A stretch of 64,000 bases of DNA, taken from the NCBI RefSeq assembly GCF_054482595.1, contig NZ_CM137008.1. One strand, written 5' to 3'. Below the pieces are notes generated by a model. It saw only the letters and a list, made by a program, of their open reading frames with translations, was not told the origin of the DNA and ran no database searches. The translations under genes were made by a program, and so were the position numbers. Position 1 is the stretch's first letter. Every line of letters starts with the position of its first letter. Positions 3,213-64,000 of the stretch are shown here, one piece after another.

Positions 3213-3575
3213 ATGTTTCTAAACTATTTCGCGTTGGGAGTGCTGATCTTCGTCTTTCTGGTGATTTTTTATGGAATCATCGCGATACATGACATCCCTT
3301 ATCTGATTGCCAAAAAGCGCAATCACCCCCATGCCGACGCTATTCATACGGCGGGCTGGGTGAGCCTGTTTACTCTGCATGTTATCTGGCCGTTTCTGTG
3401 GATCTGGGCGACGCTCTATCAACCGGAGCGTGGCTGGGGTATGCAGTCACATGTTGCGTCGCAGGAGAAAGCAACTGACCCGGAAATCGCCTCACTTTCT
3501 GACCGAATTTCCCGGCTGGAGCATCAACTCGCCGCCGAGAAAAAGACTGACTATTCCACGTTCCCGGAGATCTAA
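3213..3575 (+). CDS. yibI: DUF3302-type small inner-membrane protein
   Basis: 120-aa ORF with an N-terminal hydrophobic segment and a C-terminal coiled-coil-like tail; paralogue of the yiaW-like ORF at 21791; immediately precedes the HlyD-like gene. Confidence 0.8.
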
Positions 3576-3577
3576 TT

Positions 3578-4714
3578 ATGGATCTATTGATTGTTTTAAC
3601 TTACGTGGCGCTGGCGTGGGCGGTCTTTAAAATCTTCCGCATTCCGGTAAATCAGTGGACGCTGGCGACGGCGGCGCTGGGAGGCGTGTTTCTGGTGAGT
3701 GGTTTGATTTTGTTGATGAACTACAACCACCCTTACACTTTTACCGCGCAAAAGGCAGTGATAGCGATCCCTATCACGCCACAGGTGACGGGAATTGTTA
3801 CTGAAGTCACTGACAAGAATAATCAGCTTATTCAAAAGGGCGAGGTGCTTTTTAAGCTCGACCCGGTTCGTTACCAGGCGCGAGTTGACAGACTTCAGGC
3901 TGACCTGATGACGGCGACGCATAATATAAAAACGCTGCGCGCCCAGCTCACTGAAGCGCAGGCCAACACCACCCAGGTTTCAGCGGAGCGCGACCGTCTG
4001 TTTAAAAATTATCAACGTTACCTGAAAGGCAGCCAGGCGGCGGTGAATCCGTTCTCGGAACGTGACATCGACGATGCGCGGCAAAATTTCCTCGCGCAGG
4101 ATGCGTTAGTGAAAGGCTCGGTGGCGGAGCAGGCGCAGATCCAGAGTCAGCTCGACAGTATGGTCAACGGCGAGCAATCGCAGATTGTGAGCTTAAGAGC
4201 GCAACTTACTGAAGCAAAATATAATCTTGAGCAGACTGTCATTCGCGCACCAAGCAATGGCTACGTCACTCAGGTACTGATCCGCCCAGGCACATACGCA
4301 GCTGCCTTGCCGTTGCGTCCGGTGATGGTTTTCATCCCCGAGCAAAAACGGCAAATTGTCGCCCAATTTCGGCAAAACTCGCTGTTACGTCTGAAACCTG
4401 GCGATGATGCGGAAGTGGTGTTTAACGCGCTACCTGGGCAGGTGTTCCACGGCAAACTGACCAGTATTTTACCTGTCGTGCCAGGCGGTTCTTATCAGGC
4501 GCAGGGGGTATTGCAATCATTAACGGTCGTGCCCGGCACGGACGGTGTGCTGGGAACCATTGAACTGGACCCTAACGATGATATCGATGCCTTACCCGAC
4601 GGCATTTACGCCCAGGTGGCAGTTTACTCCGACCATTTCAGCCATGTTTCGGTGATGCGAAAAGTGCTGCTAAGAATGACCAGCTGGATGCATTATCTTT
4701 ATTTGGATCATTGA
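3578..4714 (+). CDS. yibH: HlyD-family membrane-fusion-like protein
   Basis: 378-aa ORF with one N-terminal TM segment and long coiled-coil regions; SD ggaga before the ATG; paralogue of the yiaV-like ORF at 22120. Confidence 0.85.
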
Positions 4715-5173
4715 GGGGGAAGGGGGAGATTATGGAACTTTGCTCCCTGTAAGGACTAATTATTTTTGCATATTATTTCATCGGCTGTGATGATTTTTCG
4801 TTAATATCCATTATGTTAAGAAGTTCGGGATGAGTGTGAACTCATTGGATTTTTTATCCGTCTTGATCTGCCGAAGGATCAGACTATACATTGTCGAGAT
4901 CGCAATGATGATATGAGTTGTTCCTCCTGCGACGGCTCTAATCAAAAAAGAGCAGGAGTGCTTTTCCATCTATTGCGATGATGGCTTTATTATCTGAAGG
5001 ATGACAGTCACATTTAAAAAATATTTAATCTATAGATCACAATGTAGGGTCATGGAATATATGTATACAACTATTTTCTTCTTCACTTTTAATTATCGTG
5101 TTCATTATAAAACCAAGTTAAAAAAACTCCTGGAGAGTGACTTATTAATATATTTTTAAATAAAATTAAGTTA

Positions 5174-5695
5174 TTATTCATCGATGCATTTTATAGAATC
5201 ATCAATGGCCATAATAGTACTATTAACTCTCCACTTTATATTTTTATCATCACTACAAATATTAACTGAATTTATATCAATGATTTTTTTATTCTTATCT
5301 TTTGTTTTATTTACTGTTTCAATGCAATCAGCGGCAAGTTGGAGTGGATTTAGATTTTTCAGATATGGTCTTATGATCTTTCCCTTACTTAATAAATAGC
5401 ATGTATAGGATTCGGAAAGTCCAGCATCTATTTTGTACCTCATTATATTAGATAAGGATGTGAGAAATTCCTTGTTATCATTCGCAGCCATATATGCCAG
5501 TCCGAGTTCAGCCTCTGCGGCCTTACAGGCAAAATAGCTAAGTGAACACGCTTTTCGTCCCTCTTTAGTACTGGCTGATATTAGTGCCCATAATATTGCT
5601 TTGTCTGCCAAATCTAACTCTCTCTGAAATTGTCTTGCAGTAACTGCACTCGCAGAAATAGAGAAAAAAAATACAATTGTTAATAACTTTGCCAT
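5174..5695 (-). CDS. Putative secreted immunity protein for the adjacent orphan Rhs toxin tip (yibG-like by position)
   Basis: 173-aa ORF with a signal-peptide-like N-terminus (MAKLLTIVFFFSISASAVTA); AT-rich; directly downstream of the orphan Rhs C-terminal module. Confidence 0.55.
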   Translation of the reverse strand: MAKLLTIVFFFSISASAVTARQFQRELDLADKAILWALISASTKEGRKACSLSYFACKAAEAELGLAYMAANDNKEFLTSLSNIMRYKIDAGLSESYTCYLLSKGKIIRPYLKNLNPLQLAADCIETVNKTKDKNKKIIDINSVNICSDDKNIKWRVNSTIMAIDDSIKCIDE

Positions 5696-5700
5696 ATTTT

Positions 5701-6594
5701 TTAGTCCGTAACTGTTAATGTGCTATCTGGCTCTGAAAATATTAACTCATTTAATTTTTGCATGTCATTAGATGAACCAGTTATACAACCCTCGGAACAG
5801 AATCGAGGTCCTAAAGACGGACCGAAAGCGTTTAAACAACTATGTGTTAAAAATCCATCACGATTATATGTTTCTGTATTTGCTGACGGTACTAAACGTA
5901 TACCATTAGGTTTTCTATTGGTTGCTCCAGGACCATTAACATTCCAGCTCCATACCCCTTGAGGTATTGGACCTCTATTTTGTAAGTGTGTACAACCAGG
6001 ATTATTTTTACATTGCATATTATTACCATTATTACCAGAGGCGACAGGAATAGTAAGCACATCATAAGAGTTATCATCATTTTGCGTATCTGAAACGCAT
6101 GAAAGCATACTTAAAGTTATGCTGTATAAACAGGTCGCTAATCCCAACGGGTCAATATCAGTTATCGGATTCAACGGATACTGATAAAAATTCCATCCCC
6201 CTTTCAGCCCAATCGGATCCTGAGTGATATATCGCCCCTGCAGCGGGTCATAATAGCGGTGGCGGTTGTAATACAGGCCGGACTCCTCATCATACTGCTG
6301 CCCCGGCAGGCGGATAAGCTGCTGCAGCTGATGCGGGTTCTCTTCATTCAGCAGGTTGCCCCACTCATCGTATTCTGCGCACCATTCTGTAGCACCTTCC
6401 GTGCTGATAAGCGCCAGCGGCAGGCCGCGATGGTCGCAGTGGTACAGGTGGATTTTTCGCGCCGGCGTGTACACCGGGTCCATCTGGTTTTGCATCTGCG
6501 CCACCGTCAGGCCGCACGATGCCAGCCAGCGGCGGCTTTCCTCACTCACCCGGTCAGCCAGGATTTCACTTTCCAGCCGGTCGAGCATCTGCAC
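5701..6594 (-). CDS. Orphan Rhs C-terminal module: truncated core end (through DPxGL) plus variable toxin tip, no native start (yibJ-like by position)
   Basis: ORF contains ...[39 protein letters not shown] followed by a ~145-aa AT-rich tip; homology to the main rhs core stops abruptly near 6595. Confidence 0.75.
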
Positions 6595-6595
6595 C
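6165..6595 (-). repeat. Rhs 3' core repeat, copy 3 (partial)
   Basis: About 430 bp near-identical to 10330-10760 and 8462-8890 (e.g. ccaatcggatcctgagtgatata...gcgggtcataatagcggtggcggttgtaatacaggccggactcctcatcatactgctg). Confidence 0.9.
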
Positions 6596-6635
6596 GTGCC
6601 GGCGGGAATCCCCCACTGTGCATAGGCAACTCACG

Positions 6636-7478
6636 CTATGAACGCTTCAGCTTATCAATAGCGGAAGTTATAATTTCATTGTCATCAAACTTGTACAACA
6701 TAGTATCTAAAACAGGAAGTAGCGTTTTATCACCTAATTCACCCGCAGCTTCAATGATATCATCATAAACAGTATTTTTTTTTAACTCATCGCATAAAAC
6801 AGATAAAACCCTTTTATCTTTTCTGTAGGAAAGTCAGATTATTGCTTCAATACGGACTTCCTCATTTTTATCCTGAAGCATCTCCACAAAATAATCCCTA
6901 ATATCACTATTATCATATTTATTGATATTTATTGCAAATGCGGCCCAGTTTCTGACATCTCCATTTGGATCTTTTAACAGATTAATCAATAGTGGAATTG
7001 TTGCTTTATCATTGATAACAGAAATAGCAAATGCTGTAGCACGTCTGACATTAGTCGATTTATCAAAAGCAGTAATTTGAGATTGTTCTACTATTTTAGG
7101 TGAATAATTTGGGTTTTTCTTGCATCGCTGAGCCGTTGACTCGATTGCCGTAGCTCGAACGCAAGCGCTCTTATCATTCAATGCCATATTGTTCAAAATA
7201 TTAAAAACATTATCTTCGCATTTTTTGCAAATTTTTATTTGCCCGAGTATAAATGCTCCGATATCTCTACGGATATAATTTTTATCAGAGCAGAACTCAA
7301 TTGCCAATCTAACAGCGTCTTGCCCACCTCTTAACTGTAATACTCTGGCAGATGAAATCCTTTTCAAGGAATTGTGATCATCAAGTAAGCGAAATAATTC
7401 ATCATCATTTAGTTTCTTACATTGATTATATAAACCATACTCTTTACTTGCCTTTCTTTTCTGGTATGTATTTGACAT
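6636..7478 (-). pseudogene. yibA: HEAT-repeat protein YibA, interrupted by an in-frame TGA
   Basis: Translation from the MSNTYQKRKASKEYGLYNQCKK start reads to ...EVRIEAII then TGA (6834-6836); the same frame continues LSYRKDKRVLSVLCDELKKNTVYDD...DKLKRS to a TAG at 6636-6638. Confidence 0.7.
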
Positions 7479-7582
7479 TGCAGGAACCTCCACAAAGGCT
7501 ATCTTTTTTTATCGTTTGACTGTCTGGAGTCCTCCACCTACTCTGCCATCAGCGCACACGATGTTTGATTATCCTTACATAC

Positions 7583-7966
7583 TTATTTTCCGTGGCCAAA
7601 ATTCAGAATTCTCCCATCATTTTTGCCTATTTCTATAATAAAAACCCCACCAGCAATTTGGTCTGAGTGAATGGTACCTTCAACAACCCAACTTGTTGTT
7701 AACTCAGTGATTTCGTATGGTTTTTCTTCTTCTGCGGCATCCTGTCCATAACGATTCTTAACATATATCTCAGCTAATTCCAATGCTATAGCTTTATTTT
7801 TAACCAAATTTCTAACGGTATATTTACCTTCACTTTCATACTTGCGCATTATTTTAATATTATTATTACACTGCGCCCATGTGTTGTATGTAAAAACAAA
7901 CAAAGATACAATGACACATTTCCTAAACAATATTTTTTTACATATTACCATGAACTCTGCAGACAT
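7583..7966 (-). CDS. Putative immunity protein for orphan Rhs tip 1 (possibly a lipoprotein or secreted)
   Basis: 127-aa ORF, AT-rich, hydrophobic N-terminus ([24 protein letters not shown]); overlaps the 3' end of the orphan toxin ORF; true start may be the internal Met at 7951. Confidence 0.5.
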
Positions 7967-9407
7967 TAGGTAATCCTTTTCCGTTTGTTATTTCCTTCCC
8001 GTGGTTATCTATTGCTTTAAAATTACCACTGGGCGTACCTAAATAAAATGACTTGATATTGTTATCTTTACTTTTAACTATTTTCTCATCTTTACCTGAA
8101 AATATTTCGTCCCAATATTCTCCATGACTATCTGCACCATGAGTATGATAAGCTGATACTTTCTCAGTACCATTAGGGCAAGGGCTATTGAATGGATATG
8201 ATCCTTTTCTTTCTCCTCGGTTAGGTGCTGTTGAGAAATATCTGCCACTATTATCCTTACATATTAAACCAGCGAACTCTTTATCTTCGCAAATAGATTG
8301 GCTATTTATTTTATTTAAGGCGTCATATGCGGTGCTATCTATAGAATCAAATTTATCTGGACCTATCATAGCGGATAGTGTGCCGCAAAGACCATTAGTA
8401 CATGCCCCCGATTTTGCATCCTCCCACATAGATAAACCCAGGGGGTCGATGTCTGATATCGGATTCAATTGATATCCATACAGGTTCCATCCCCCCTTCA
8501 GCCCAATCGGATCCTGAGTGATATACCTCCCCTGCAGCGGGTCATAATAGCGGTGGCGGTTGTAATACAGGCCGGACTCCTCATCATACTGCTGACCCGG
8601 CAGGCGGATGAGCTGCTGCAGCTGGTGCGGGTTCTCTTCATTCAGCAGGTTGCCCCATTCATCGTATTCTGCGCACCATTCTGTAGCCCCTTCCGTGCTG
8701 ATAAGCGCCAGCGGCAGGCCGCGATGGTCGCAGTGGTACAGGTGGATTTTTCGCGCCGGCGTGTACACCGGGTCCATCTGGTTTTGCATCTGCTCCACCG
8801 TCAGGCCGCACGATGCCAGCCAGCGGCGGCTTTCCTCACTCACCCGGTCAGCCAGGATTTCACTTTCCAGCCGGTCGAGCATCTGCACCAGCACCGGCGG
8901 GAACACCACACTGCCACCGTCTTCGCCGCCGGACTGCTGAAGGGCATCCGCCAGGCTGCGGCGCTGCGTTTTCGCCAGCTCACCGGTGGCAGTTTCGACC
9001 CTGATGAGTGGCGTGAAGCTCCCCGGCTGATAAATCGTCTGGATGCGGCTCCTGTCGTTCTGTATCGTGGTCAGCCGGTCGCCGTCCCAGCCGTACCAGG
9101 TCACTTGCGGTTTCCGTGACAGCGACATCCAGCCCGTCAGGTCCCGTTCACGCCGCCACACCCGTTTTGCCACCCTGCGGCCCAGCGGGTCGTAAAGATA
9201 GCGACTTTCGACCAGCGGCTCTGCATATTGTGTCCGCGTGTAGTGCACCAGCCGGTGCTGACTGTCGTAATGGTACCGGTGGGTGCGCTCATCATCCGTG
9301 CGGATAACCCCTTCCGGGATGAGGTCGGTTTTCTCCGTCAGCCTGCCGTGACGGTCATACCGGTAAAGATAGTGCGCGTCACGGGCGATACGGTTATCCG
9401 GCCACAT
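7938..9407 (-). CDS. Orphan Rhs C-terminal module 1: about 1 kb of core 3' end plus a distinct ~175-aa toxin tip, no native start
   Basis: 489-aa ORF beginning inside core sequence ([18 protein letters not shown]...), includes [27 protein letters not shown] then an AT-rich tip; core homology to the main gene ends near 9480. Confidence 0.75.
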
Positions 9408-9480
9408 GCTGAGGGCGCTGTCCGGGTGCAGCTCCGGGTCGGGCAGGCGGTTACCTGCCGGGTCTGTGGCATACGGGATA
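8462..9480 (-). repeat. Rhs 3' core repeat, copy 2
   Basis: About 1 kb highly similar to 10330-11350 of the main rhs gene. Confidence 0.9.
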
Positions 9481-9524
9481 TCAATGCCCAGGTTACATAT
9501 AATAATAAGAGCAATTAACTTAAT

Positions 9525-9851
9525 TTATTTGTTTATAATGCGCTTACTTAATACAAACCATTGAATATACCCTCCTGACAGAAAATAAAGCCATATTATT
9601 ATCGCCATAATATACTTACTATCAATCCTTACGCCAATAATGTCTGATACAGTCCCTATAAATATTAGAGCAATAAAGAATACTATGCCTGTTGGAAAAC
9701 ATATTACCATCATTCCATAAGACATGAGACTAATTAACTCGCTCACATCACGAGTGGAGTCTAATAGTGAAAGTCTATGCATGGAAAAGAATAGTATTAA
9801 AAGCGATAAAGCCAGCCATATAGCTCTGAATAAAAAAATAATATATTTCAT
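9525..9851 (-). CDS. Putative RhsI immunity protein (small polytopic membrane protein) for the main Rhs tip
   Basis: 108-aa ORF with about three hydrophobic helices; start codon overlaps the rhs stop by 1 nt (TAATG); AT-rich. Confidence 0.6.
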   Translation of the reverse strand: MKYIIFLFRAIWLALSLLILFFSMHRLSLLDSTRDVSELISLMSYGMMVICFPTGIVFFIALIFIGTVSDIIGVRIDSKYIMAIIIWLYFLSGGYIQWFVLSKRIINK

Positions 9852-12800
9852 TACATCACTCCGGTGAATACAAATCTAATAAAACGTCCAATGTTATTTC
9901 CGGAGCACTTCATCTTACATGTTTCTAAAGAATCATTAGACCAGTCTTGGCAGTTTTTAAATAGCCCTAAATTTATAGGTGTGAATATATCAGGCAATAC
10001 AGAATAACGCGGCCTTACCTCTTTAAACTTCCCTTTTAAACAGTTCTCCACACAACTATTATCGGTTTCAACGAGGTCACAACGGCCAGCAGCTTCTTTT
10101 GTATCATTACTTGCTTTACCTGGCCCCCATAGACCATCTCCTTTTGATTCTCCCCGTTGGTCTTGGCCACCACAAGTATAGTCCCCTTTACCATCTGGGA
10201 CACAAAGATATTGATGATAGAACGGATTCCCCCATATATCTGGACCGCTTCTTTCACCAGTTCCGCCCATTGAATGCAGTGGCTTAATGCATTTTAGTGT
10301 TTCTAATCCTAATGGATCTATATTTGAGATCGGATTCAACGGATACTGATAAAAATTCCATCCCCCCTTCAGCCCAATCGGATCCTGAGTGATATACCGC
10401 CCCTGCAGCGGGTCATAATAGCGGTGGCGGTTGTAATACAGGCCGGACTCCTCATCATACTGCTGCCCCGGCAGCCGGATAAGCTGCTGCAGCTGATGCG
10501 GGTTCTCTTCATTCAGCAGGTTGCCCCATTCATCATATTCTGCGCACCACGCTGTTGCCCCTTCCGTGCTGATGAGCGCCAGCGGCAGGCCGCGATGGTC
10601 GCAGTGGTACAGGTGGATTTTTCGCGCCGGCGTGTACACCGGGTCCATCTGGTTTTGCATCTGCTCCACGGTCAGGCCGCACGATGCCAGCCAGCGGCGG
10701 CTTTCCTCACTCACCCGGTCAGCCAGGATTTCACTTTCCAGCCGGTCGAGCATCTGCACCAGCACCGGCGGGAACACCACACTGCCACCGTCTTCGCCGC
10801 CGGACTGCTGAAGCGCATCCGCCAGGCTGCGGCGCTGCGTTCTGGCCAGTTCACCGGTGGCAGTTTCAACTCTGATGAGTGGTGTGAAGCTCCCCGGCTG
10901 ATAAATCGTCTGGATGCGGCTCCTGTCGTTCTGTATCGTGGTCAGCCGGTCGCCGTCCCAGCCGTACCAGGTCACTTGCGGTTTCCGTGACAGCGACATC
11001 CAGCCCGTCAGGTCCCGTTCACGTCGCCATACCCGTTTTGCCACCCTGCGGCCCAGCGGGTCGTAAAGATAGCGACTTTCGACCAGCGGCTCTGCATATT
11101 GTGTCCGCGTGTAGTGCACCAGCCGGTGCTGACTGTCGTAATGGTACCGGTGGGTGCGCTCATCATCCGTACGGATACCCCCTTCCGGGATGAGGTCGGT
11201 TTTCTCCGTCAGCCTGCCGTAACGGTCATACCGGTAAAGATAGTGCGCGTCACGGGCGATACGGTTATCCGGCCACATGCTGAGGGTGCTGTCCGGGTGC
11301 AGCTCCGGGTCGGGCAGGCGGTTGCCCGCCGGGTCCGTGGCATACGGGATGCGGATATCCAGATTCGCTGCGGTGGTGTGAACGCCGGTCAGCCTGCCGG
11401 TGGTGCTGTAGCTGTAACTCCGGGTCTGGCGCGGGCTGCTGATGCGGATGAGTTCGCCGTTGTCGTTCCAGGTGTAATCGCGGTCATACTGCAGGCTGTT
11501 CAGGTGCTGACGCTGTAACTGCCCGGCAGGGGTGTAAGCGGTGGTGAGTTCATAACGACCGAAGCTGCGCAGCGTTTCCCGGTGCAGGCGGTCGCGGGTG
11601 AAATCCACCAGCGGTGTGTCGCCGAGCTTCATGCCTGCCAGCCAGCCGCTGCCGTAGGTCAGCCATTCCACGGCGGGCAGGCTGTCCGGTATACAGCGGT
11701 TCGCCAGTCCCTGCGCGTTGTACGCATGTCTGGTCTCATGCTGCCAGAGCAGTGCTTCCGTCTGCGGGTGATGCACCGTCTGGCGCTCACCGGTCAGGCG
11801 GCCTTTCTCATCATACCTGTAATGCACCGCTACCCGGTGCCCTTCGCTGATATGGCTGATGTCTGTCAGCCAGCCACGTTCGTCATACCGCCACCGCTCT
11901 GCGGTTTCACCCTTCACGGTGCGGTGCGTGAGGCGGTCTGCTTCGTCATAGTGCCAGTGGGTGACCAGACCCTCATCCTCGCTGCGGATAAGTTTGCCGG
12001 TCAGGTCGTGGTGATAACGCTGTGTGCGGCCGTCAAAGCCGGTTTCCTGTATCAGCCGGTCAAGTACATCGTAACGGAAGGTGGTGTGGCTGCCGTTTTC
12101 ACTGGTCAGGCGGATGACCCGTCCGGCAGCATCGTATTCCATACTGCGCGTCAGCCCGCCCTGCGTGGTACGGACGGCCTTTCCCCACGCATCGTACTGT
12201 GTCCCGTTTCTGCTGCCGTCCGGGGCAATGACGGCGGTCAGGTCACCGGCGATGTTGTATTCATACCGCGTTTCATGGCCCTGCGTGTCTTTCACGGCAA
12301 TTAACTGTCCACGGCTGTCGTATGCGCGGTACTGGCTCAGCCCTTCCTCGCGGTGCACCGCCGTCATCTGCCCGAAGCGGTCATGGTCATAACGGGTCTG
12401 GTAGCCGGAACAGTCGGTGAAGCTCAGCAACTGGCCGTAACGGCTCCACGTCATGGTTTTCCGGCTGCCGGTGGCATCGTCCGTTGCGCAGGGGAGGTCA
12501 CTGTGTGGATTATCATAACGGTAGCGGGTGATATCGCCGTCAGGGGCGGTTTCCTGAATCAGACGGCCGGATTCATCATATTCCCGGCGCAATTCCAGCC
12601 CGTCAGGCCCGGTGGCTGACGTTAACTGGTTGTGGTGGTTATAGTAAAACGCCGATGCCCTGCCATCCGGCGTGGTTATGCGCGTGATGAGGCCCGTCAC
12701 CACATCCGGGCTGTACTCTGTTGTCCTGCCTGCGGCATCCGTCTGTGCCCTGAGCCTGCCCACGGCGTCAAACTGACTCTGCGTGACGCTGCCGTCCGCG

Positions 12801-14035
12801 TGTTCCTTTTTCACCACCCGCTTCAGCCCGGCTTCGCCCTGCGTGTGCAGCACTTCACGGCGGTCCAGGCTGTCGGTGATGGTGATGCGGTCTTTCTCAT
12901 ACTGATACGTGTAGCTTAAGCCTGCCGGGTTTAGCTGTTCTGTCACCCGCCCGTCGCTGTCGTAACGGTAACGGATTTCCGGCCGGCCCGTGTGACGGTG
13001 CGCCACCATCCGGCCCCGGTATTTATCATCGTAAGTAAAGCTGCGCACCTGTGTATTGCTGCGGTCATACACTGCCGCCAGTTCGCCGCGCGGCGTCCAG
13101 CCATAGCGCACCAGCGGCGCGGCAGGTAAATTCTCCGGGTATTCCGGGTCGTGCGTCAGCCACACGGCAGACAGACGGATGCCGTTGTCCCGGCCATATT
13201 CGGTGTAACCCGGCAGGGTATCAGGAAAAGCGGACGGTTCCGTCCCGCCGGAAATGGCCTGCTGCCGGGCTTCTTCTGCCTGCTGCGCCTGCGTGGTCAG
13301 TACCAGCCGGAAGTGACGCCCGGCACCATCCGTCACGCCGGTGATTTCGCCGCTGAATTCACCGGCGGCTTCGCGGTGGAACGTCTGTGTGCGCCCGAAG
13401 CGGTCCACCAGCCCGGTCAGTACCCGGTACGGCGGCAGCGGCGCAGGCAGCACCTCATCCGCTTCCGGCACCCGCTCACACCACCACCACGGCCCCTGCG
13501 GACTGTTTGTCGCCAGATAACGATGCGGACTTAAGCGGAGTTCTTCCGGCAGCGCCTGCCAGAGTGCGGCCAGCCGGTGACCTTCATCCAGTTTCGCCAC
13601 GCCGCCGCGCACCAGCCACAGTGACTCGCTGCGGCTGTAACCGTCCTCACCGGGAAACAGGTGCTCAAAATACAGGCTTCTGCCGCCGTTATCACTGAGT
13701 ATCAGTGTGTTATCGCGCAGCTGTAAGCGGATATCCGCAGGCATTTTCCAGCCGGGGCCGAGGCTCCCCACCGGCGCGGGCGTTTTTGTCCGGTAACTGC
13801 TGTAGGTGCGGGAGAGGATGAACGGCAGCGGGGCGGGCAGGGCGATGTCGGTTTCACCGGGAAGGACCTTTGCACCGAGCAGGGGATTGACCGGATGGCC
13901 GGACGTCACTCCGCCGGGGCACCCCGAACAGGCCACACCGGTTGGGGCACCGATGCGCACCCCGGCTGAACCCTGAACAATGCTACCGCCATACTGCGTC
14001 ATGTCGCCCTGACGCGCCGCCGGTTTTCCGCTCAT
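9851..14035 (-). CDS. rhsA: Rhs-family polymorphic toxin with N-terminal PAAR-like domain, YD-repeat core and variable C-terminal tip
   Basis: 1394-aa ORF; N-terminus [42 protein letters not shown] (PAAR-like); many YD repeats; DPLGL hinge followed by a ~150-aa Cys-rich AT-rich tip; sits next to yibF as rhsA does in K-12. Confidence 0.9.
10330..11350 (-). repeat. Rhs 3' core repeat, copy 1 (within the main rhs gene)
   Basis: Source copy of the about 1-kb segment duplicated in the two orphan modules. Confidence 0.9.
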
Positions 14036-14263
14036 CTGCTCATCCTTGTTTTATCGAGTTATTTGTCTGCTTCCAGGCAAAACCCTACAGATTTATAAGA
14101 AAGCCTTAAGTGAGATATCCATCAGATAGAAACAATTAGGAAAATATTTATATCACCATGATAAATATGTGATTTATTTGGAAGTAACAAACCATCAACA
14201 TTTTCTGCCCTTTTTCCCATCACCAGGCCATACTGATATTTTTCCTCGCACAAAGGACTCGGC

Positions 14264-21790: not shown

Positions 21791-22114
21791 ATGTTCCTGG
21801 ACTATTTTGCACTGGGAGTGCTTATTTTTGTATTTCTGGTGATATTCTATGGGATTATTATTTTACATGATATTCCCTACCTGATTGCTAAAAAACGTAA
21901 TCATCCTCATGCCGACGCCATTCATGTTGCAGGTTGGGTGAGTCTTTTTACGTTACATGTTATCTGGCCGTTTTTGTGGATTTGGGCCACGCTTTACCGC
22001 CCGGAGCGGGGATGGGGAATGCAAAGCCATGATTCATCCGTTATGCAACTGCAACAGCGCATTGCCGGGCTGGAGAAACAGCTCGCCGACATCAAATCCT
22101 CTTCTGCCGAGTAA
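21791..22114 (+). CDS. yiaW: DUF3302-type small inner-membrane protein (paralogue of yibI)
   Basis: ATG at 21791 after SD gaggga (the track ORF starts at an upstream TTG); [23 protein letters not shown]...; about 80 percent nucleotide identity to yibI over the 5' region. Confidence 0.85.
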
Positions 22115-22119
22115 TACTT

Positions 22120-23256
22120 ATGGATTTACTGATTATTTTGACCTATGTGGCTTTTGCATGGGCAATGTTTAAGATCTTCAAAATTCCCGTAAATAAATGG
22201 ACCATTCCCACAGCGGCCTTGGGTGGAATATTTATTGTCAGCGGTCTAATTCTGTTAATGAACTATAACCATCCGTATACCTTTAAAGCGCAAAAAGCGG
22301 TTATTTCTATTCCTGTTGTCCCACAGGTGACTGGTGTGGTGATTGAAGTGACGGATAAGAAAAATACGCTGATTAAAAAAGGTGAAGTGCTATTTCGACT
22401 GGACCCGACGCGTTATCAGGCGCGGGTGGATCGGCTGATGGCGGATATCGTTACCGCAGAACATAAACAGCGGGCGTTGGGCGCAGAGTTAGATGAGATG
22501 GTGGCGAATACTCAGCAGGCAAAGGCCACGCGGGATAAATTCGCTAAAGAGTATCAGCGTTACGCACGCGGCAGCCAGGCGAAAGTAAACCCGTTTTCAG
22601 AACGCGATATCGATGTGGCGCGGCAAAATTATCTGGCGCAGGAAGCCTCCGTAAAGTCATCGGCAGCGGAACAAAAACAGATCCAGAGCCAGCTGGATAG
22701 CCTGGTGTTGGGTGAACATTCTCAAATCGCCAGCCTGAAAGCGCAGCTCGCGGAAGCAAAATATAACCTTGAGCAGACGATAGTGCGTGCGCCGAGCGAT
22801 GGTTATGTGACCCAGGTACTGATTCGTCCGGGTACCTATGCCGCGTCGCTGCCGCTACGTCCGGTGATGGTGTTTATACCCGATCAGAAACGACAAATCG
22901 TGGCGCAGTTCCGTCAGAACTCCTTGCTGCGCCTGGCTCCCGGCGATGATGCGGAAGTGGTATTTAACGCTCTGCCAGGCAAAGTGTTCAGCGGTAAGCT
23001 GGCAGCCATTAGTCCAGCTGTTCCCGGCGGAGCTTATCAGTCGACCGGCACCTTACAGACGTTAAACACAGCGCCGGGTTCAGATGGCGTTATCGCGACC
23101 ATTGAACTGAATGAGCACACTGATTTGAGCGCTTTACCAGACGGTATTTACGCCCAGGTGGCGGTCTACTCTGATCATTTCAGCCATGTCTCGGTGATGC
23201 GCAAAGTGTTATTACGTATGACCAGCTGGGTGCATTACCTTTATCTCGATCATTAA
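22120..23256 (+). CDS. yiaV: HlyD-family membrane-fusion-like protein (paralogue of yibH)
   Basis: 378-aa ORF collinear with yibH over its entire length. Confidence 0.85.
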
Positions 23257-25099: not shown

Positions 25100-25228
25100 T
25101 GGATGTCGGTGCGGCTGGCCTACGCTCTCGCACCGACTTGTATGCCTGATAAGACGTGTTAAGCGTCGCATCAGGCAATGTGCTCCTTACGTTGGATGCG
25201 GCGCGAGTGCCTTATCCAACCTACGGAT
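25100..25228. repeat. REP/BIME element at the yiaT-proximal boundary of the GH127 module
   Basis: gcctgataagacgtgttaagcgtcgcatcaggc and ggatgcggcgcgagtgccttatccaacctacgg; the last unit overlaps the GH127 stop codon. Confidence 0.75.
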
Positions 25229-27191
25229 GGCAATGCTTTTCCTCATTCACCCAGATCCGCATTTCGCCTTCACCCCGGTTGGCCCAGCTAAACCACGGGA
25301 TAAAGGTCAGAGTTTGCGTCTGGCGTTTGGCTGGCGCGCTGTCGTAATGCCACAGCGGTTGCTGCTCTGGATTGCTCTGTTCATACCGGTAACCCGGTGC
25401 CTGGATTAAGATCTTATGGCTAAACAATCCATTGCCTTCAAATGTCGTAAATGGCGCATCGGTGGGCAGCCACAGATTATGCAGTGACTCGCCGTTGTCG
25501 GCCTGTTCCAGGCAATACACCAGCGGGCCGCGCTGAATCGCCACTTTTCCGGCGACGTGACGCACCAGCGGGTTACCGTAAACGCGACGTACTGGCATCG
25601 GCAAAGTCAGATTCAGCGTGTCGCCCTCCTGCCATTCGCGGGTAATGTGCAAATACCCTTTACGAATATCCTGCTCGACCTCTTCCCCATTCAATATGAT
25701 CTGCGGCTGTGTGCACCAGTCCGGCAGACGTAAAGCAAGTGTATGACGCACCGGCTGGGGCGATTCGACCGCAATCGTCACCTGTTCCTGCCACGGATAG
25801 TTCCCGCTAACCCGCAGGCGCAGCGTGCCATTTTCTACCGGCACTTCCATGCTGTTTCCTGCGTATATGTTGATATACAACGCATCTTCTCGCGGCGTGT
25901 AGAGATAATGACCAATCGAGGTCAGCACGCGGGCGATATTTGGCGGACAACAAGCGCAGCCAAACCAACGCTGGCGGATCGGTTTAACGTGATCGTAGAT
26001 ATGGTTGAATTTCAGCGATTTTGGATGTACTTCCAGCGGATTCACATAGAAGAAATGTTTGCCATCCAGCGCCATGCCGCCGAGCACGGTGTTGTACAGT
26101 GCGCGCTCCATCACATCGGCATATTGACTGTCGCCTTCCATTTCCAGCATTCGTCGGGCAAACATCATCAGGCCGATGGAGGCGCAACTTTCAGCGTATA
26201 CCGTGTCATTCGGCAGATCGTAATCGCTGCTGAACGCTTCACCGCTGCTCTGTGAGCCAATGCCGCCGGTAATATATAACTGACGCTGGGCCATATTGTT
26301 CCACAGCCGCAGGCAGTTCTGACGCTTGCTGTCATCGTGACTTAAACGCGCGAGATGCGCGACGCCGGTCATCAGATAGACAAAACGTACCGCGTGACCG
26401 ATGGCGGTTTGCTGTTGCGCAAGGGGCAAATGTGCCTGGCTGTAGGCTTTGTCTTTCACCATCCACGCCGGGCCGTAGGTGTGCCAGTGCGATGTCTGCC
26501 CGCGCTTTTCATATTCCTGGTCGTAATAGTGCGGTTGCGCACCACGTTGTTCGACAAAATAGTTCGTCAGTGCCAGGTAGCGCGGCTCTTCGGTCACTTC
26601 ATACAGACGCATCAGTGCCAGTTCAATTTCCGGGTGACCAGGGTAACCGTGTAACTTACTTTCATCTGGACCAAACACGCTGTCGATATGATCGGCCAGA
26701 CGGCAAACCACTTCCAGCAAGCGCCGCTTGCCCGTGGCCTGGAAGAAGGCGACTCCAGCTTCAATCAGATGACCTGCGCAGTAAAGTTCATGACACTCCG
26801 CCAGATTGCTCCAGCGTTCTTCGGGTGCTTTTACCGTAAAGTAAGTATTGAGATAGCCGTCTTCGCATTGGGCGGAGGCGATCAGTTCGATTACCTCGTC
26901 GGCGGTTTTTTCCAGTTCGGCGTCTGGCTTCTGGCACAGCGACCAGGCTACCGCTTCCAGCCATTTGGCGACATCGCTGTCCTGAAACACCATCCCGTAA
27001 AATTCACCCTCCTGAAGTCCGGCGGCAATGCGAAAGTTTTCAATCGCATGGCTGGGTTCCGCTTCTGGTATACGATCGTTCAAGGCATCCCACTGATAAG
27101 GAATCACCACGTCGCGGACCAGTTGTTGGTACTGACCGAGAAACGGATCGCTGACCGTCAGTTTATGCAGATCGACTTCCGAAATGTTCAT
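25221..27191 (-). CDS. Glycoside hydrolase family 127-like protein (DUF1680; putative beta-L-arabinofuranosidase), cytoplasmic
   Basis: Start taken at MNISEVDL after SD aaggag (656 aa); contains YAESCASIG and WFGCACCPPN, matching the Glu-x-Cys and Cys-x-Cys-Cys zinc/nucleophile signature of GH127 enzymes; no signal peptide. Confidence 0.75.
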   Translation of the reverse strand: MNISEVDLHKLTVSDPFLGQYQQLVRDVVIPYQWDALNDRIPEAEPSHAIENFRIAAGLQEGEFYGMVFQDSDVAKWLEAVAWSLCQKPDAELEKTADEVIELIASAQCEDGYLNTYFTVKAPEERWSNLAECHELYCAGHLIEAGVAFFQATGKRRLLEVVCRLADHIDSVFGPDESKLHGYPGHPEIELALMRLYEVTEEPRYLALTNYFVEQRGAQPHYYDQEYEKRGQTSHWHTYGPAWMVKDKAYSQAHLPLAQQQTAIGHAVRFVYLMTGVAHLARLSHDDSKRQNCLRLWNNMAQRQLYITGGIGSQSSGEAFSSDYDLPNDTVYAESCASIGLMMFARRMLEMEGDSQYADVMERALYNTVLGGMALDGKHFFYVNPLEVHPKSLKFNHIYDHVKPIRQRWFGCACCPPNIARVLTSIGHYLYTPREDALYINIYAGNSMEVPVENGTLRLRVSGNYPWQEQVTIAVESPQPVRHTLALRLPDWCTQPQIILNGEEVEQDIRKGYLHITREWQEGDTLNLTLPMPVRRVYGNPLVRHVAGKVAIQRGPLVYCLEQADNGESLHNLWLPTDAPFTTFEGNGLFSHKILIQAPGYRYEQSNPEQQPLWHYDSAPAKRQTQTLTFIPWFSWANRGEGEMRIWVNEEKHCHP

Positions 27192-27201
27192 CTTGTGCTC
27201 C

Positions 27202-28602
27202 TTAAGGCTGTACATGACGCTGACGCAGGTCGGTAGCAATGCGTGACATCATAGGGTTATTGAGTTTGCAAAAGCGGATCGCCCCTGCCAGCAGCAGGTG
27301 GAATAGCGCAGGCAGTAATGTTTCCATCGCCGTGATCCCGCCAAGCGAACTGGTGGTCTGGTTTTCCACGCCTGGCTGGTAGGCGACAAAAATAAACAGC
27401 AGGCTGATGATCCCGGCGCTGGAGGCCCAGGCCAGCTTGATGAAAAACAGATTGAAGGCGAAGTTCATGCCGGAAGAACGTACGCGGGTTTTCCACTCGC
27501 CGTAGTCATCGGCAAAGGCCATCAATGAGAAGTGCAGTGGCAATGTGAAGCCAAGAATCACGCCATTACCGAGGATCACCGCCAGCCACAGCGTTTGATA
27601 AGCCGGGCCGGAGGGCAGGAACCACATCAACACCGCCAGTGCAGCGAGGAGCAGGTTGGTGTAGTAATAAATTTTGACGGTATCGAAACGCCGCGTTAAC
27701 GGGCTGACAATCACCGAGCCGATAATGGAGGCGAAGGTGACCATGGTGAAGAACAGCGACGTGTAGCCCGTGCTGCCTTGTAAGACGTAGGTAATGAAGT
27801 ACATATACCCACCGCCGCGAATATTAAAGACGTTAATCAGCAGGAAAGACATGACCAGCATCAGCAGCAGTTGGTCGTTGTTCCGCAGCCCGGCAAGATG
27901 TTCGCGCAGGGTAAATTTCCCCATTGTGGAGAGTGGCACCCGTTCACGAACCCAGAAAAAACAGCACAGGAACATCACCACGGCAATGGCGCACAGCACG
28001 CCGACGCCCAATTGATAGCCGCGCGCGGCATTACCCTGACCGAAGAGATCTACCATCCACGGTAAGCCTACCGAAACCAGAAATCCCGCTACGCCACAGA
28101 GAACGAATCGCCAGGACTGGCAGGAGATCACTTCATTGTGGCGGGTGGTCATGGTGTTGATCAGCGCGCAGTACGGTACGTTGATGGCGGTATAACCGAC
28201 TGAAAGGAGCAGGTAAGTACCGAACGCCCAGGCGATTTTTACTCCCATGCTGGCATCTGGCACGGTGAACGTCAGGATGCCGATAATGCCGATGGGAATG
28301 GCAATCCATAGCTGCCACGGACGAAAGCGCCCCCAGCGACTTTGCGTCCGGTCGGCAATGACGCCCATCACCGGGTCGGAGATGGCATCAAACACGCGCA
28401 GTGCAATAAACAGCGTGCCAACCAGCGCCGGAGTTAATCCAAAAACGTCGGTGTAGAAAAAGGTGAGAAAGTTCATGATCAGGCAAGTTATTACGGTGCC
28501 GCCTGCGTCACCCAGGCCGTAGCCTATTTTTTCCCGTACCGATAACGCATCGTCAATTTTACCTTTAGCGATATCAGCGGTAGTAATCGGTGTAGAGGTC
28601 AT
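27202..28602 (-). CDS. GPH-family glycoside/pentoside/hexuronide:cation symporter (MelB-like)
   Basis: 466-aa polytopic [38 protein letters not shown]...[13 protein letters not shown] (GPH signature region); SD gagga; stop lies 10 nt before the GH127 start, so operon-like. Confidence 0.8.
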
Positions 28603-28740
28603 AGATATTCCTCGTGAATAGGGAGCAATTTTTAGTTTTATTGAAATGACCTGATTAATTCTGCCGTGAACGGGAATATCAACAAGGCGAGAAAAGAGTA
28701 AAAAAAGGTGACGATTCCGACCTGAATTTAAAAGTGTGAA

Positions 28741-29643
28741 ATGGATCAGGTGAAATTAATGTTTTTTATTAATAATCAAAAGGTAATGTGTTTTGTCATT
28801 AATGAAGAAGCGGGAAATTACATATCAATGCTCGAATTATCCATGACGTTACCGATTAAAGTGCAAAATGGTGGATTATTTATTTCCCGTGGCGTAGGGA
28901 GGCATCCTGCAAGGCGGCTGGAGTCATGGGAAATTATCTTTGTCGAAAAAGGTCGATTAACGATTCAGGAAGAAGAACGGATATTTCTGGTCGATGCGGG
29001 AGAGAGTTTATTACTCTGGCCGAACCGACAACATGTTGGGGTGGAGGATTTTCCCGCCGATCTCAAATTTTACTGGCTGCATTTTGAGGTTAAAGCGCCG
29101 GACAACGACCCTCGCTGGCTTACTCATCTTAGCGTGCCGCAACAAACGAAGGTTGTCGATCCGCAGGCGCTGGTGGCCCTGTTTCGCCAGTTCTTAAGCG
29201 AACAGGAAAAGCATCAACGCACTCCGGCGCTGGAGTTTATTGTGCTGCTCATTTTGCAGCAGCTCACCCGTGACGCGCGTCTTGATGAACAGGCCGATGG
29301 CGCAGGCACCACCCTTGCCTGGAAAGCGCAGAAACTGATCCGCACGCAATATCATCGCCCGCTTTCTACGGTGCTTCTGGCCCGCGAGCTGTACTGCAAT
29401 GCCGATTATCTTGGGCGCGTCTACCGGCGGGTGTTTCATCTGACGTTAACAGAAGCAATCCATCGCCAGCGGGTGCGCGAAGCCGAAAAGCTGTTAATTA
29501 GCGAAGCGCGATCGCTCACGGAAGTGGCGGCGTTGTGCGGGTTTAATGACGTTGGCTATTTCCGGCAGATTTTTCGCAAACACACCGGTTTAACGCCAGC
29601 AGCGTGGAAGCGGCGTTACAGCAAGGAACATATCAATTCGTAG
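28741..29643 (+). CDS. AraC/XylS-family transcriptional regulator (N-terminal cupin-like sensing domain, C-terminal HTH)
   Basis: 300-aa ORF divergent from the transporter gene; C-terminal region with the typical AraC HTH; start codon uncertain (ATG 28741 or a downstream Met near 28819). Confidence 0.75.
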
Positions 29644-29886
29644 TGCCGTGTCGATTTCGCTTTCGACATCACGTCTGAAACAGGTGGGGGAGAAAAATCT
29701 CCTGAAACCACTGCGTGAAACCGCGCAGGCTATTTCTAATGAACTGGGATTTACTGTCAGGGATGACCTTGGCGCGATCACATAACGCTTTGGACAAGTG
29801 CCAAAACTTTAACATTTCCTTCGTTGGATCAAAGCAGTAGGGACGTGCTCTCTGGCACTCTGCTGTTTTAGTGCAAAGGAGTGATC

Positions 29887-59403: not shown

Positions 59404-59928
59404 ATGAAAAAGGTCGTTTTTGCCTTAACCGCACTGGCGTTAACTTCTGGCACTGTATTCGCAGCAGAGTCTGGTGACGGCACGGTTAAATTTACAGGCG
59501 AGATCGTGGATTCACCTTGCGTACTGTCCGTTGACTCTCAGAACCAGGAAGTTGTGTTGGGTCAGGTACAAAAATCTGTATTTGCTGCGGTTGGTGACAA
59601 ATCCCCGGCAAAACCTTTCGAAATCAAACTGGAAGATTGCGATACCACCACGATGAAAAAAGCCAATGTGAGCTTTAGCGGTGTTGGTGATGCAGATCAA
59701 TCTGATCTGATTTCTGTTAGTACTGAAGCCGGTGCGGCGAAAGGTGTTGGTATCGGTATTTATGATAACAGCAACACCCTGGTCGCTCTTAACGGTGGTA
59801 AAGCAAGTGTTGATCTGAGTAAAGGCCAGACGGTTCTCTACTTTACCGCCAACTACGTTTCAACTCTGGCAACGGTAACGACCGGTTACGGCAATGCGCA
59901 GGTCGATTTCAACCTGTCTTACGAGTAA
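59404..59928 (+). CDS. lpfA: Fimbrial major subunit, long-polar-fimbriae type
   Basis: Start at MKKVVFALTALALTSGTVFAAESGDGTVKFTGEIVDSPCVL after SD ggag; type 1 pilin domain with C-terminal ...VDFNLSYE; preceded by a very AT-rich promoter region. Confidence 0.85.
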   Translation: MKKVVFALTALALTSGTVFAAESGDGTVKFTGEIVDSPCVLSVDSQNQEVVLGQVQKSVFAAVGDKSPAKPFEIKLEDCDTTTMKKANVSFSGVGDADQSDLISVSTEAGAAKGVGIGIYDNSNTLVALNGGKASVDLSKGQTVLYFTANYVSTLATVTTGYGNAQVDFNLSYE

Positions 59929-59980
59929 TCGTCTGTTTTACCCATGGCGGCGTAATTGCCGCCATTAGTCGTCAAAATTC

Positions 59981-60679
59981 ATGGATCGAATGATGAAAAG
60001 TAAATTTGTTGCGTTGGCTCTGTCTCTGTTCCTCTCCCAGTCAGTTCTGGCGGGGGGCGTTGGGCTTAGTGCTACCCGTGTGATTTATGATGGCAGTAAG
60101 AAAGAAGCCTCGCTGACCGTACAGAATAAAAGTAAGACGGAAGAGTTTCTGATCCAGTCCTGGGTGGATGATGCCGCGGGCAGCAAAAAAACACCGTTTA
60201 TAATTACCCCGCCGTTGTTCAGGCTCGATCCTGGAAAAAACAATATATTGCGTATTGTAAATACTACCCCTGGCCTGCCGCAGGATCGCGAATCGGTCTA
60301 CTGGGTTAATGTGAAAGCCATTCCGTCTAAAAGTGACGACAGCGAAAACAAAAATGTATTACAGATTGCTGTTCGCACCCGAATCAAACTTTTTTATCGC
60401 CCGGCAGGTTTAAAGGGTGATGTAAAAACCGCGCCAAATGAACTGCGATTTACGCGTAACGGTAATCAGCTCCGCGTTGATAATCCGACAGTTTTTAATA
60501 TTACCTTTAATCAATTTTTTGCGAATGACAAAGAAATTGAAAAAGCAGGCATGGTACCCGCTAAAGGGGCATTAAATATCACATTACCCGCCGGGGTAGG
60601 TAGCGTTTCTAAAATTAAATATAACGCCATCAATGACTTTGGATCGTCAGCGGAAATGATGACTAAAAATGTTGATTGA
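59981..60679 (+). CDS. lpfB: Periplasmic fimbrial chaperone (PapD-like)
   Basis: 232-aa ORF with signal peptide; chaperone motifs (LSATRVIYDG..., NPTPYY-like region); start may be at 59990 or 59993. Confidence 0.85.
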   Translation: MDRMMKSKFVALALSLFLSQSVLAGGVGLSATRVIYDGSKKEASLTVQNKSKTEEFLIQSWVDDAAGSKKTPFIITPPLFRLDPGKNNILRIVNTTPGLPQDRESVYWVNVKAIPSKSDDSENKNVLQIAVRTRIKLFYRPAGLKGDVKTAPNELRFTRNGNQLRVDNPTVFNITFNQFFANDKEIEKAGMVPAKGALNITLPAGVGSVSKIKYNAINDFGSSAEMMTKNVD

Positions 60680-60707
60680 TTAATATCTTTTCAGGAGAAA
60701 TAGCTCA

Positions 60708-63281: not shown

Positions 63282-63295
63282 GCAAGGAGAGCGAA

Positions 63296-64000
63296 ATGAA
63301 AGCGGCAATAGCATTATCCTTATTAGGATGCGTATTCGGATTTTCTGGCAAGGCATTTGCCGGAGATGCGTGGGGGCCATGTACCCCCGCGGATGGCACG
63401 ACTTATCACTATAATGTCGATGTGGATGTTGGTATACCTGATGCGGCAAAAAACGTCGCAGGAACGGTTTTACCGGATGTCCTTAACTGGTCTAATGGAC
63501 AAAACGTATCGCTAATTTGTGAATGTCCTGATTCTTATAAGAATGAAAAAGATACTCTAGTACAAGGGGTGAGTATGCTTCCCCCTTCTGGCCGTTCGGT
63601 TGACAGTATGAAATATTATACTTTGACGGAGGAACTGGAGGTTGCGACGAAAATTCGCATCAGTACCAGTGTGTATGGATTTGTTCCTTTCAAAAACCAG
63701 CAGGCGCTGCAAACAACCGGATGCAACAAAGTCATTACTACGCCCTATATGGGCGGCGCAGGTCTACTTTCCTTTGCTATTACTAAACCCTTTATCGGCG
63801 ATTCAGTCATCCCTCCCACGTTAATTGCCGAACTGTATGCCTCCAAAACAAATAAAGATTACGGAACAATGCCAATATCTTCCGTATCTATTCAGGGCCG
63901 CGTCACCATAACCCAGGATTGCGAAATTAAACCTGGCACGGTGCTGGATGTGCCATTTGGTGAATTCCCCTCCTCGGCATTCAAAAACAGGCAAGGGCAA
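63296..64000 (+). CDS. lpfD: Fimbrial minor subunit / putative adhesin, 5' portion (continues beyond window end)
   Basis: Open frame from ATG 63296 to the window end with no stop: MKAAIALSLLGCVFGFSGKAFAGDAWGPCTPADG...; SD aaggaga. Confidence 0.75.
   Translation, partial: MKAAIALSLLGCVFGFSGKAFAGDAWGPCTPADGTTYHYNVDVDVGIPDAAKNVAGTVLPDVLNWSNGQNVSLICECPDSYKNEKDTLVQGVSMLPPSGRSVDSMKYYTLTEELEVATKIRISTSVYGFVPFKNQQALQTTGCNKVITTPYMGGAGLLSFAITKPFIGDSVIPPTLIAELYASKTNKDYGTMPISSVSIQGRVTITQDCEIKPGTVLDVPFGEFPSSAFKNRQGQ

Follow-up and report, generated by a model that had tools for sequence, protein, structure and literature searches.

Why does a single site in an Escherichia coli chromosome carry the 3′ end of an rhs core three times, each copy followed by a different C-terminal tip? 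The question is raised by a window of 64,000 nucleotides (nt) from contig NZ_CM137008.1 of RefSeq assembly GCF_054482595.1, in which positions 5174-14035 hold a main rhs gene and two downstream copies of its 3′ part, here called orphan 1 and orphan 2. The window as a whole differs from E. coli XH990 (NZ_CP019359.1, 128001-192000) by one mismatch. All features of the array lie on the minus strand, and the array is flanked by single-copy backbone, with yibF/selA/selB on one side and yibH/yibI on the other, as at the rhsA site of K-12. The array belongs to the clade I Rhs elements and occupies the rhsA site of E. coli, in the interval from yibF to yibH. Very probably, this element records successive replacements of the C-terminal tip, preserved in a main gene and in the cassettes displaced from it.

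Three copies of the core end with three unrelated tips

The limits of the repeats were taken from a self-BLAST of the array. Positions 10314-11350 correspond to 8443-9479 over 1037 nt at 96.1% identity and without gaps, and positions 10303-10784 correspond to 6138-6618 (482 nt, 94.6%). The two orphan copies match each other at 93.8% (8433-8913 and 6139-6618). A repeat of 1 kb with 96% identity lies far outside what chance would produce. A preliminary description of this DNA, made from the letters alone, had placed the copies at 10330-11350, 8462-9480, and 6165-6595, which is right to within about 30 nt. Rhs_assc_core was found in all three copies with an E value of about 1e-24. Against the RHS_core profile, the orphan fragments cover positions 906-1261 and 1105-1261, that is, the last 356 and 157 positions. 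The 5′ part of the orphan 2 core fragment is collinear with the yibJ core fragment of K-12.

Each copy is closed by the hinge P-x4-DPLGL (10304-10318, 8433-8447, and 6139-6153), with a DPIGL motif 22 residues upstream of DPLGL; the DPxGL hinges of the preliminary description are thus all present. Past the hinge, the tips measure 150 amino acids (aa) in the main gene, 164 aa in orphan 1, and 145 aa in orphan 2. Neither self-BLAST nor family searches detected any similarity among the three, which belong to different, unrelated families. Each is followed by an open reading frame (ORF) of 108, 127, or 173 aa. The core copies have a GC content of 0.58-0.62, compared with 0.37-0.41 for the tips and 0.31-0.34 for the ORFs that follow them. 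The description of the tips as different and AT-rich therefore stands, as does that of a small AT-rich ORF after each, whereas the given length range of 145-175 aa is too wide at its upper end. The array comprises the following features.

14036-14153, minus strand: 5′ leader of the Rhs element, with the Shine-Dalgarno (SD) motif AGGA 7 nt before the ATG
9851-14035, minus strand: full-length main rhs gene, 1394 aa, by its RHS_core match
13895-14035, minus strand: N-terminal 47 aa, a short PAAR-like fragment ending ...GH, followed by P48 (PVNPLLGAK)
13667-13900, minus strand: DUF6531 domain, aa 46-123, N-terminal plug of the Rhs shell (Pfam, E=1.4e-16)
10304-11350, minus strand: core 3′ segment, copy 1, inside the main gene, with the DPIGL...DPLGL aspartyl-protease motif
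9851-10303, minus strand: main tip, 150 aa, identified by K-12 comparison as the RhsC C-terminal tip
9525-9851, minus strand: ybfB, 108 aa, with about three hydrophobic helices and an SD motif
8433-9479, minus strand: orphan 1 core fragment, 1037 nt at 96.1% to the main gene
7938-8432, minus strand: orphan 1 tip, 164 aa, the RhsB tip of K-12 (DUF4329/Tox-JAB-2)
7583-7966, minus strand: yhhH, 127 aa, Imm-NTF2-2 (PF15631, E=3.9e-25)
7499-7530, minus strand: RhsA tip remnant, the last 32 nt of the K-12 coding sequence, by K-12 comparison
6636-7478, minus strand: yibA, HEAT-repeat gene, a pseudogene here by an in-frame TGA at 6834-6836
6139-6618, minus strand: orphan 2 core fragment, 482 nt at 94.6% to the main gene
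5701-6138, minus strand: orphan 2 tip, 145 aa, a Tlde1-like LD-peptidase (PF10908, Tlde1_dom)
5174-5695, minus strand: Imm57-family gene, 173 aa (PF15596, E=1.5e-46)
4779-5011, minus strand: H-repeat (YhhI-like) transposase remnant, frameshifted, marking the distal end of the element

The orphan cassettes

Profile searches of the tips, which the preliminary description had suggested, assigned DUF4329 to orphan 1 and Tlde1_dom to orphan 2 and left the main tip without a family. The orphan 1 tip matches PF14220 (DUF4329) with E=1.6e-38 and contains an HTH...S...D motif; a sequence search of the PDB gave no meaningful hit for it. DUF4329 is the Tox-JAB-2 toxin, described as paired with Imm-NTF2-2 (Zhang et al., 2012, PMC3482391). 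YhhH has an N-terminal hydrophobic segment, and its gene, with a strong SD motif, overlaps the toxin ORF by 29 nt. Both the orphan 1 toxin frame (528 codons) and yhhH are intact in this strain.

The orphan 2 tip matches PF10908 with an i-E value of 1.9e-6 over model positions 10-105 of 120, while phmmer against PDB chains, Tlde1a included, gave no match. The catalytic motif of Tlde1a is H-x(14-17)-(S/T)HGCh (PMC9638812). In orphan 2 the corresponding motif reads H-x15-SEGCI; the first His and the catalytic Cys are kept, and the equivalent of Tlde1a H129 is Glu. The cassette thus resembles Salmonella Tlde1a/Tldi1a, an LD-carboxypeptidase/transpeptidase effector of the T6SS (type VI secretion system) and its immunity protein, in the Pfam Tlde1 domain and in the His...Cys spacing. 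Like Tldi1a, its immunity protein begins with a signal peptide-like hydrophobic segment (aa 1-20), which fits a periplasmic target. In contrast to the stand-alone Tlde1a, the orphan 2 tip is fused to an Rhs hinge; moreover, its motif is SEGCI instead of (S/T)HGCh, and its immunity protein belongs to Imm57. The pairing of Tox-LD-peptidase with Imm57 has already been catalogued (PMC3482391). Both the toxin frame (309 codons) and the Imm57 gene are intact in this strain. The RefSeq annotation from the Prokaryotic Genome Annotation Pipeline (PGAP) shows at orphan 2 the core fragment alone (6139-6606, as a partial pseudogene), and the intact tip at 5701-6138 has no coding sequence (CDS). Elsewhere, the toxin is broken by stops or frameshifts in K-12 (yibS′/yibW′) and O55:H7, and the Imm57 gene is truncated or frameshifted in K-12 (yibV), O55:H7, ES5, and Ec1117.

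Between the two orphans lies a further module (6636-7530) that consists of the RhsA tip remnant and yibA, without a toxin. The 32-nt remnant is the sole leftover of the toxin that formerly preceded yibA. The in-frame TGA cuts YibA at residue 214 of 280. The yibA alleles of K-12 and Ec1117 are 99.6% identical and free of the stop, and that of ES5 is annotated with an internal stop. We conclude that yibA is an immunity-type gene decaying after the loss of its toxin. In K-12, yrhC, located downstream of rhsB-yhhH, matches positions 7233-7478 of the window, the 5′ fragment of a yibA homologue. The match to K-12 rhsB-yhhH-yrhC′ continues through the first part of yibA, and yrhC is therefore a yibA fragment. 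The junction of yhhH, RhsA tail, and yibA therefore predates the split of these loci. A role of the downstream genes in anti-phage defence was rejected, as PADLOC applied to the four downstream proteins returned only weak HEAT-repeat noise, from YibA.

The preliminary description had counted three toxin/immunity specificities at this locus. Three unrelated tips are indeed present, and two of the pairings are catalogued; the immunity-type genes, however, number four.

Modules from three K-12 loci are stacked at one site

Comparison with K-12 resolves the array into overlapping segments. Positions 14153-8460 are collinear with the K-12 rhsC-ybfB-ybfO core (97.1% over 5.7 kb), including the junction of 45 nt and the point at which the next core fragment starts. 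Positions 9479-7132 match the K-12 rhsB 3′ end-yhhH-yrhC′ at 98.7% over 2.3 kb, positions 7530-6166 match the rhsA tail-yibA-yibJ core at 98.2%, and positions 6349-4500 match yibS′-yibW′-yibV-yibU′ through yibH at 92.8%. One site here stacks the tips that K-12 holds at three loci. The homology to the region upstream of K-12 rhsC starts at 14153, and past about 14155 the sequence is specific for the rhsA site. At the distal end, the H-repeat remnant shows about 80% nucleotide identity to K-12 ybfL, ybfD, and yhhI.

The alignment to the K-12 rhsA region proposed in the preliminary description brings out the same site and a shared set of modules. The K-12 RhsA element (rhsA-yibA-yibJ-yibG-yibS′-yibW′-yibV-yibU′) has a core 97.4% identical to the present one. 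Common to both are yibA, a core fragment of the yibJ type, the Tlde1-like/Imm57 module yibS/yibW/yibV, and the H-repeat remnant at the end. RhsA-CT serves as the main tip in K-12; here, the RhsA tip is cut to 32 nt, and the RhsC tip/ybfB and RhsB tip/yhhH modules, the same as in the RhsC and RhsB elements of K-12, are placed ahead of yibA. Furthermore, yibA is a pseudogene here, and the Tlde1-like cassette has both its toxin and its Imm57 gene intact. Missing from the array are the yibJ tip and yibG, apparently lost when two orphan core fragments recombined. The XH990 genome has a single copy each of the RhsB-tip and Tlde1-like modules. In a sliding-window comparison, the main core is a fine mosaic of the K-12 rhsA, rhsB, and rhsC cores with no single donor, and the rhsC-specific sites are confined to the last ~25 nt before the hinge.

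Other strains show different states of the same site. K-12 has the RhsA tip/yibA, followed by yibJ/yibG and the degraded yibS′/yibW′/yibV. Ec1117 carries an RhsB tip interrupted by IS3 with yhhH, an intact yibA, a yibJ-type orphan with yibG, and a degraded orphan with a frameshifted Imm57 gene. In ES5, a full-length gene with the RhsB tip/yhhH is followed by yibA with its internal stop, orphan 2, and a frameshifted Imm57 gene. O55:H7 has another main tip with a DUF6258 partner. These alternative module orders fit the prediction of the C-terminal displacement model (Jackson et al., 2009, PMC2935791). The array also shares with the displacement model and the described orphan rhs-CT/rhsI modules (PMC2935791; Poole et al., 2011, PMC3150448; Koskiniemi et al., 2014, PMC3967940) the GC-rich core and AT-rich tips, the core fragments of variable length, the non-homologous tips shared between loci, and orphans without translation signals. 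It departs from the view that clade I elements in E. coli generally lack dissociated tips (PMC2935791), since it contains two and a remnant, as K-12 yibJ and ybfO had hinted.

The state in ES5 corresponds to the present locus minus the RhsC-tip/ybfB module. It is thus consistent with the suggestion, made in the preliminary description, that the main tip may be the newest. The sites that separate the main copy (M) from orphan 1 (O) point in no single direction: at these 44 sites ES5 reads MOOMOOOMMMMMMMM, followed by 29 O, a mosaic that matches neither ES5 as the ancestor nor ES5 as a simple deletion derivative.

Nearly all complete E. coli genomes (5424 of 5426) match some part of the locus, and in about a fifth (1159 of 5426) a single place covers 80% of it or more. 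Taken singly, the RhsC-tip/ybfB module was counted in 2778 genomes, the RhsB-tip/yhhH module in 3007, and the orphan 2 module in 3696, only 77 of which have at least 95% identity to the intact allele described here.

The main gene and its N-terminus

The product of the main gene scores 2627.5 bits against the NCBIfam RHS_core equivalog (cut-off 2000) and spans the profile over its full length (1-1261). Pfam RHS_repeat matches it 15 times, 10 times with E ≤ 0.001. The RHS/YD repeats occupy approximately aa 315-980, and the core extends to aa 1244. In RefSeq the gene is named rhsC because of its tip, although it is located at the rhsA (yibF-yibH) site.

The preliminary description had also proposed a PAAR-like N-terminus. 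Pfam PAAR_motif gave no match to the main protein at E ≤ 10, and residues 2-29 (GKPAARQGD...) show a weak likeness to PAAR proteins, confined to the last repeat, with E values of 0.024 (9rce_c), 0.65, and 6.4. By contrast, aa 48-145 match residues 1-95 of the Tse5 shell chain 8cp6_B with E=1.5e-16. The N-terminal 47-aa fragment of Tse5 is termed PAAR-like and is needed for secretion; cleavage occurs at K47|P48, ahead of a DUF6531 plug (PMC10684867). P48 of the main protein takes the position of this cleavage site, here H47|P48. The protein thus resembles Pseudomonas aeruginosa Tse5 (RhsP1, PDB 8CP6) in the 47-aa PAAR-like N-terminus, the position of the cleavage site before P48, the DUF6531 plug, the YD shell, and the two Asp with DPxGL at the C-terminal cleavage site. 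It differs in residue 47, which is His here and Lys in Tse5, and in its toxin, which is unrelated to the pore-forming Tse5-CT. Judged by this layout, PAAR-like appears to be a fair label for the N-terminus, without implying membership in the PAAR family. T6SS dependence has been demonstrated for Tse5. No T6SS, vgrG, or hcp genes are annotated in the 64-kb window.

Taken together, the main protein combines a PAAR-like fragment and a DUF6531 plug at its N-terminus with a YD-repeat shell, and its C-terminal part is an aspartyl-protease plug that ends in DPLGL. Judging from solved Rhs effectors, the protease would cut at DPLGL and free the 150-aa tip, against which YbfB would shield the producer cell.

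The main tip and YbfB

Searches of Pfam, NCBIfam, and PDB sequences gave no match for the main tip. Its homologues with a source name (n=33) come from E. coli, Shigella, Salmonella, or Buttiauxella; the others are metagenome sequences. An AlphaFold model based on a 14-sequence alignment reached a predicted local distance difference test (pLDDT) value of 72 and a predicted template modelling (pTM) score of 0.69. Foldseek returned no significant match to this model, the best being Aichivirus 2A (E=0.69). Conservation among the homologues is complete at H10 and nearly so (at least 90%) at H30 and at C118, the Cys of NCQDW, a pattern that fits an H-box/NC active site. We tentatively assign the tip to the permuted papain-like (NlpC/P60-LRAT) Cys-His hydrolases. 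The start of ybfB overlaps the stop of the main gene (TAATG), and ybfB is presumed to be the immunity gene for the main tip. A more specific picture is conceivable, if on balance not the expected one: the RhsC tip would be an uncharacterised toxin family, found so far only in Enterobacteriaceae, whose members are cysteine-rich permuted papain-like (LRAT/PLAAT- or TseH-like) hydrolases with a hydrophobic C-terminal tail that target lipids or the envelope and are neutralised within the membrane by the three-helix YbfB, so that all three intact cassettes would be envelope-directed. The function of the RhsC tip/YbfB pair is uncharacterised to date, and the fold hypothesis is now testable.

All three immunity proteins, YbfB, YhhH, and Imm57, look membrane-bound or periplasmic from their hydrophobic segments. 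This suggests that all three toxins may act on the cell envelope.

Expression signals and the state of the orphans

SD motifs precede the main gene, ybfB, yhhH (AGGA), and yibA (GGAGG), and the Imm57 gene has only a weak GGA. The orphan frames are open upstream to 9524 (orphan 1) and 6630 (orphan 2) and begin inside core homology. Neither the in-frame ATG of orphan 1 (9407) nor the in-frame GTG of orphan 2 (6594) has an SD motif within 15 nt, as in orphan rhs modules described as lacking translation signals (PMC3150448, PMC3967940). Since ribosome-binding sites are absent, the orphan toxin frames are probably silent. In ES5, an orphan 2 toxin ORF 100% identical to that in the window stands beside a frameshifted Imm57 gene, which likewise argues that this toxin is silent in place. 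The preliminary description had the orphans starting within core sequence with no start codon or promoter of their own. The start within the core holds; in-frame ATG and GTG codons do exist, however, though without SD motifs, and "promoterless" is not established.

In Salmonella, main and orphan tips are transcribed from an internal core promoter just upstream of the hinge (PMC7043789). The 108-nt Salmonella P2 promoter has an equivalent in all three core copies, with about 72% identity, a −35 element of ATGATG (TTGACG in P2), and a −10 element of TACAAC (TACAAT in P2). A consensus scan of the locus gave 19 promoter-like sites compared with 14.3 ± 3.8 in shuffled sequences; terminators were as frequent as expected. 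The locus has two top-scoring sigma-70-like matches, at 9598-9625 on the minus strand, inside ybfB, and at 9575-9602 on the plus strand. The former (TTGATA-16-GATAAT, 10/12) points into the orphan 1 core from about 120 nt upstream; in such AT-rich DNA, it is probably a chance match, though it would become a candidate should transcription of the orphan be seen.

Displacement, decay, or in-cell expression

In the displacement reading, older tips would have been pushed downstream together with part of the core, in the order RhsB-type Tox-JAB-2 with yhhH, then the 32-nt RhsA-tip remnant with yibA, then the Tlde1-like tip with Imm57. The orphan immunity genes have SD sites of their own and may keep the cell protected from neighbours using those toxins. 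Fusion of an orphan tip to the main gene could come about by RecA-dependent recombination across the core repeats. The main gene shares perfect-identity tracts of up to 143 nt with orphan 1 and up to 90 nt with orphan 2; a crossover is predicted to delete 1871 or 4165 nt and to yield fusion proteins of 1408 or 1389 aa, respectively. In Salmonella, 522 bp with 95% identity were enough for a main/orphan pair to recombine under selection (PMC3967940), and the repeats described here are comparable in length and identity.

The orphan cassettes could instead be inert fossils that drift toward decay and have no present role as toxin reserve or immunity. We regard this as the less probable view, though it deserves to be taken seriously. 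The nonsense codon in yibA, the broken orphan 2 toxins of K-12 and O55:H7, the damaged Imm57 genes of four other strains, and the orphan frames devoid of SD motifs all speak for decay, as does the rarity of alleles close to the intact orphan 2 (77 of 3696 genomes). On the other hand, both orphan toxin frames and both of their immunity genes are intact in this strain, and yhhH has a strong SD motif. The orphan 1 core differs from that of the main gene at 40 nt, yet only 9 of 345 aa are changed, a constraint that may predate the displacement. Moreover, orphan modules are functional and selectable in Salmonella and in CDI (contact-dependent growth inhibition) systems (PMC3967940, PMC3150448).

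It is improbable that the main and orphan tip/immunity pairs are expressed within the cell from core promoters and act as toxin-antitoxin-like addiction or growth-control modules, as has been reported for Salmonella Typhimurium. Such a role would draw on the P2-equivalent stretch in all three copies, on the Genomic SELEX (systematic evolution of ligands by exponential enrichment) binding of minor-sigma RNA polymerase in K-12 rhsC at 732870, within the repeated segment (PMC5493296), and on promoter-like sites located within the AT-rich genes immediately upstream of either orphan, such as that at 9625-9598. However, the P2 equivalent falls below the 80% identity cut-off of PMC7043789 with both hexamers altered, and the promoter-like sites are not enriched over the shuffled sequences. 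The apparent export or membrane location of the immunity proteins would suit toxins acting in the periplasm and is ill-matched to a cytoplasmic role, and ES5 tolerates an intact orphan 2 toxin together with a frameshifted Imm57 gene. Finally, an assembly artefact from mis-joined paralogous rhs loci, a known assembly hazard with a median of six query-matching places per E. coli genome, can practically be dismissed, since at least 13 complete genomes, independent of one another and of diverse host and country, have the same 9.6-kb arrangement with an identity of 99.9-100%, the flanking DNA is single-copy backbone, and the main and orphan copies, differing at 40 sites, are not collapsed duplicates.

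C-terminal displacement in rhs loci and arrays of main and orphan Rhs genes are known from the literature, as are two of the three pairings of toxin and immunity, and the locus itself is already in RefSeq. Nothing at this locus is mechanistically new relative to published rhs displacement, and it carries little weight as a discovery. Its value is that of a clean worked example, in which the tips of three K-12 loci are stacked at one site and other strains show alternative states. The small additions are the decaying, toxinless yibA module, the intact but unannotated Tlde1-like orphan toxin, the indication of envelope-located immunity, and the tentative NlpC/P60-LRAT-like fold of the RhsC tip. 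The practical points are the RefSeq annotation gap at 5701-6138 and the naming of the main gene as rhsC after its tip.

Other regions of the window

Between yiaT and ysaA, positions 25221-29785 encode a GH127 glycoside hydrolase, a major facilitator superfamily (MFS) transporter, an AraC regulator, and a C-terminal IclR-family fragment. In K-12, this position is presumably taken by the yiaJ-yiaKLMNO-lyxK-sgbHUE cluster, and the region looks like a replaced sugar-utilisation island. Downstream of yhjX, positions 59404-64000 contain a long polar fimbriae operon (lpfA1-lpfB-lpfC) and a further fimbrial gene; this operon is a known variable-region insertion. Two paralogous pairs of DUF3302 and HlyD-family genes, yibI/yibH (3213-4714) and yiaW/yiaV (21791-23256), lie about 17 kb apart and bracket the rhs/sel region, one on each side.

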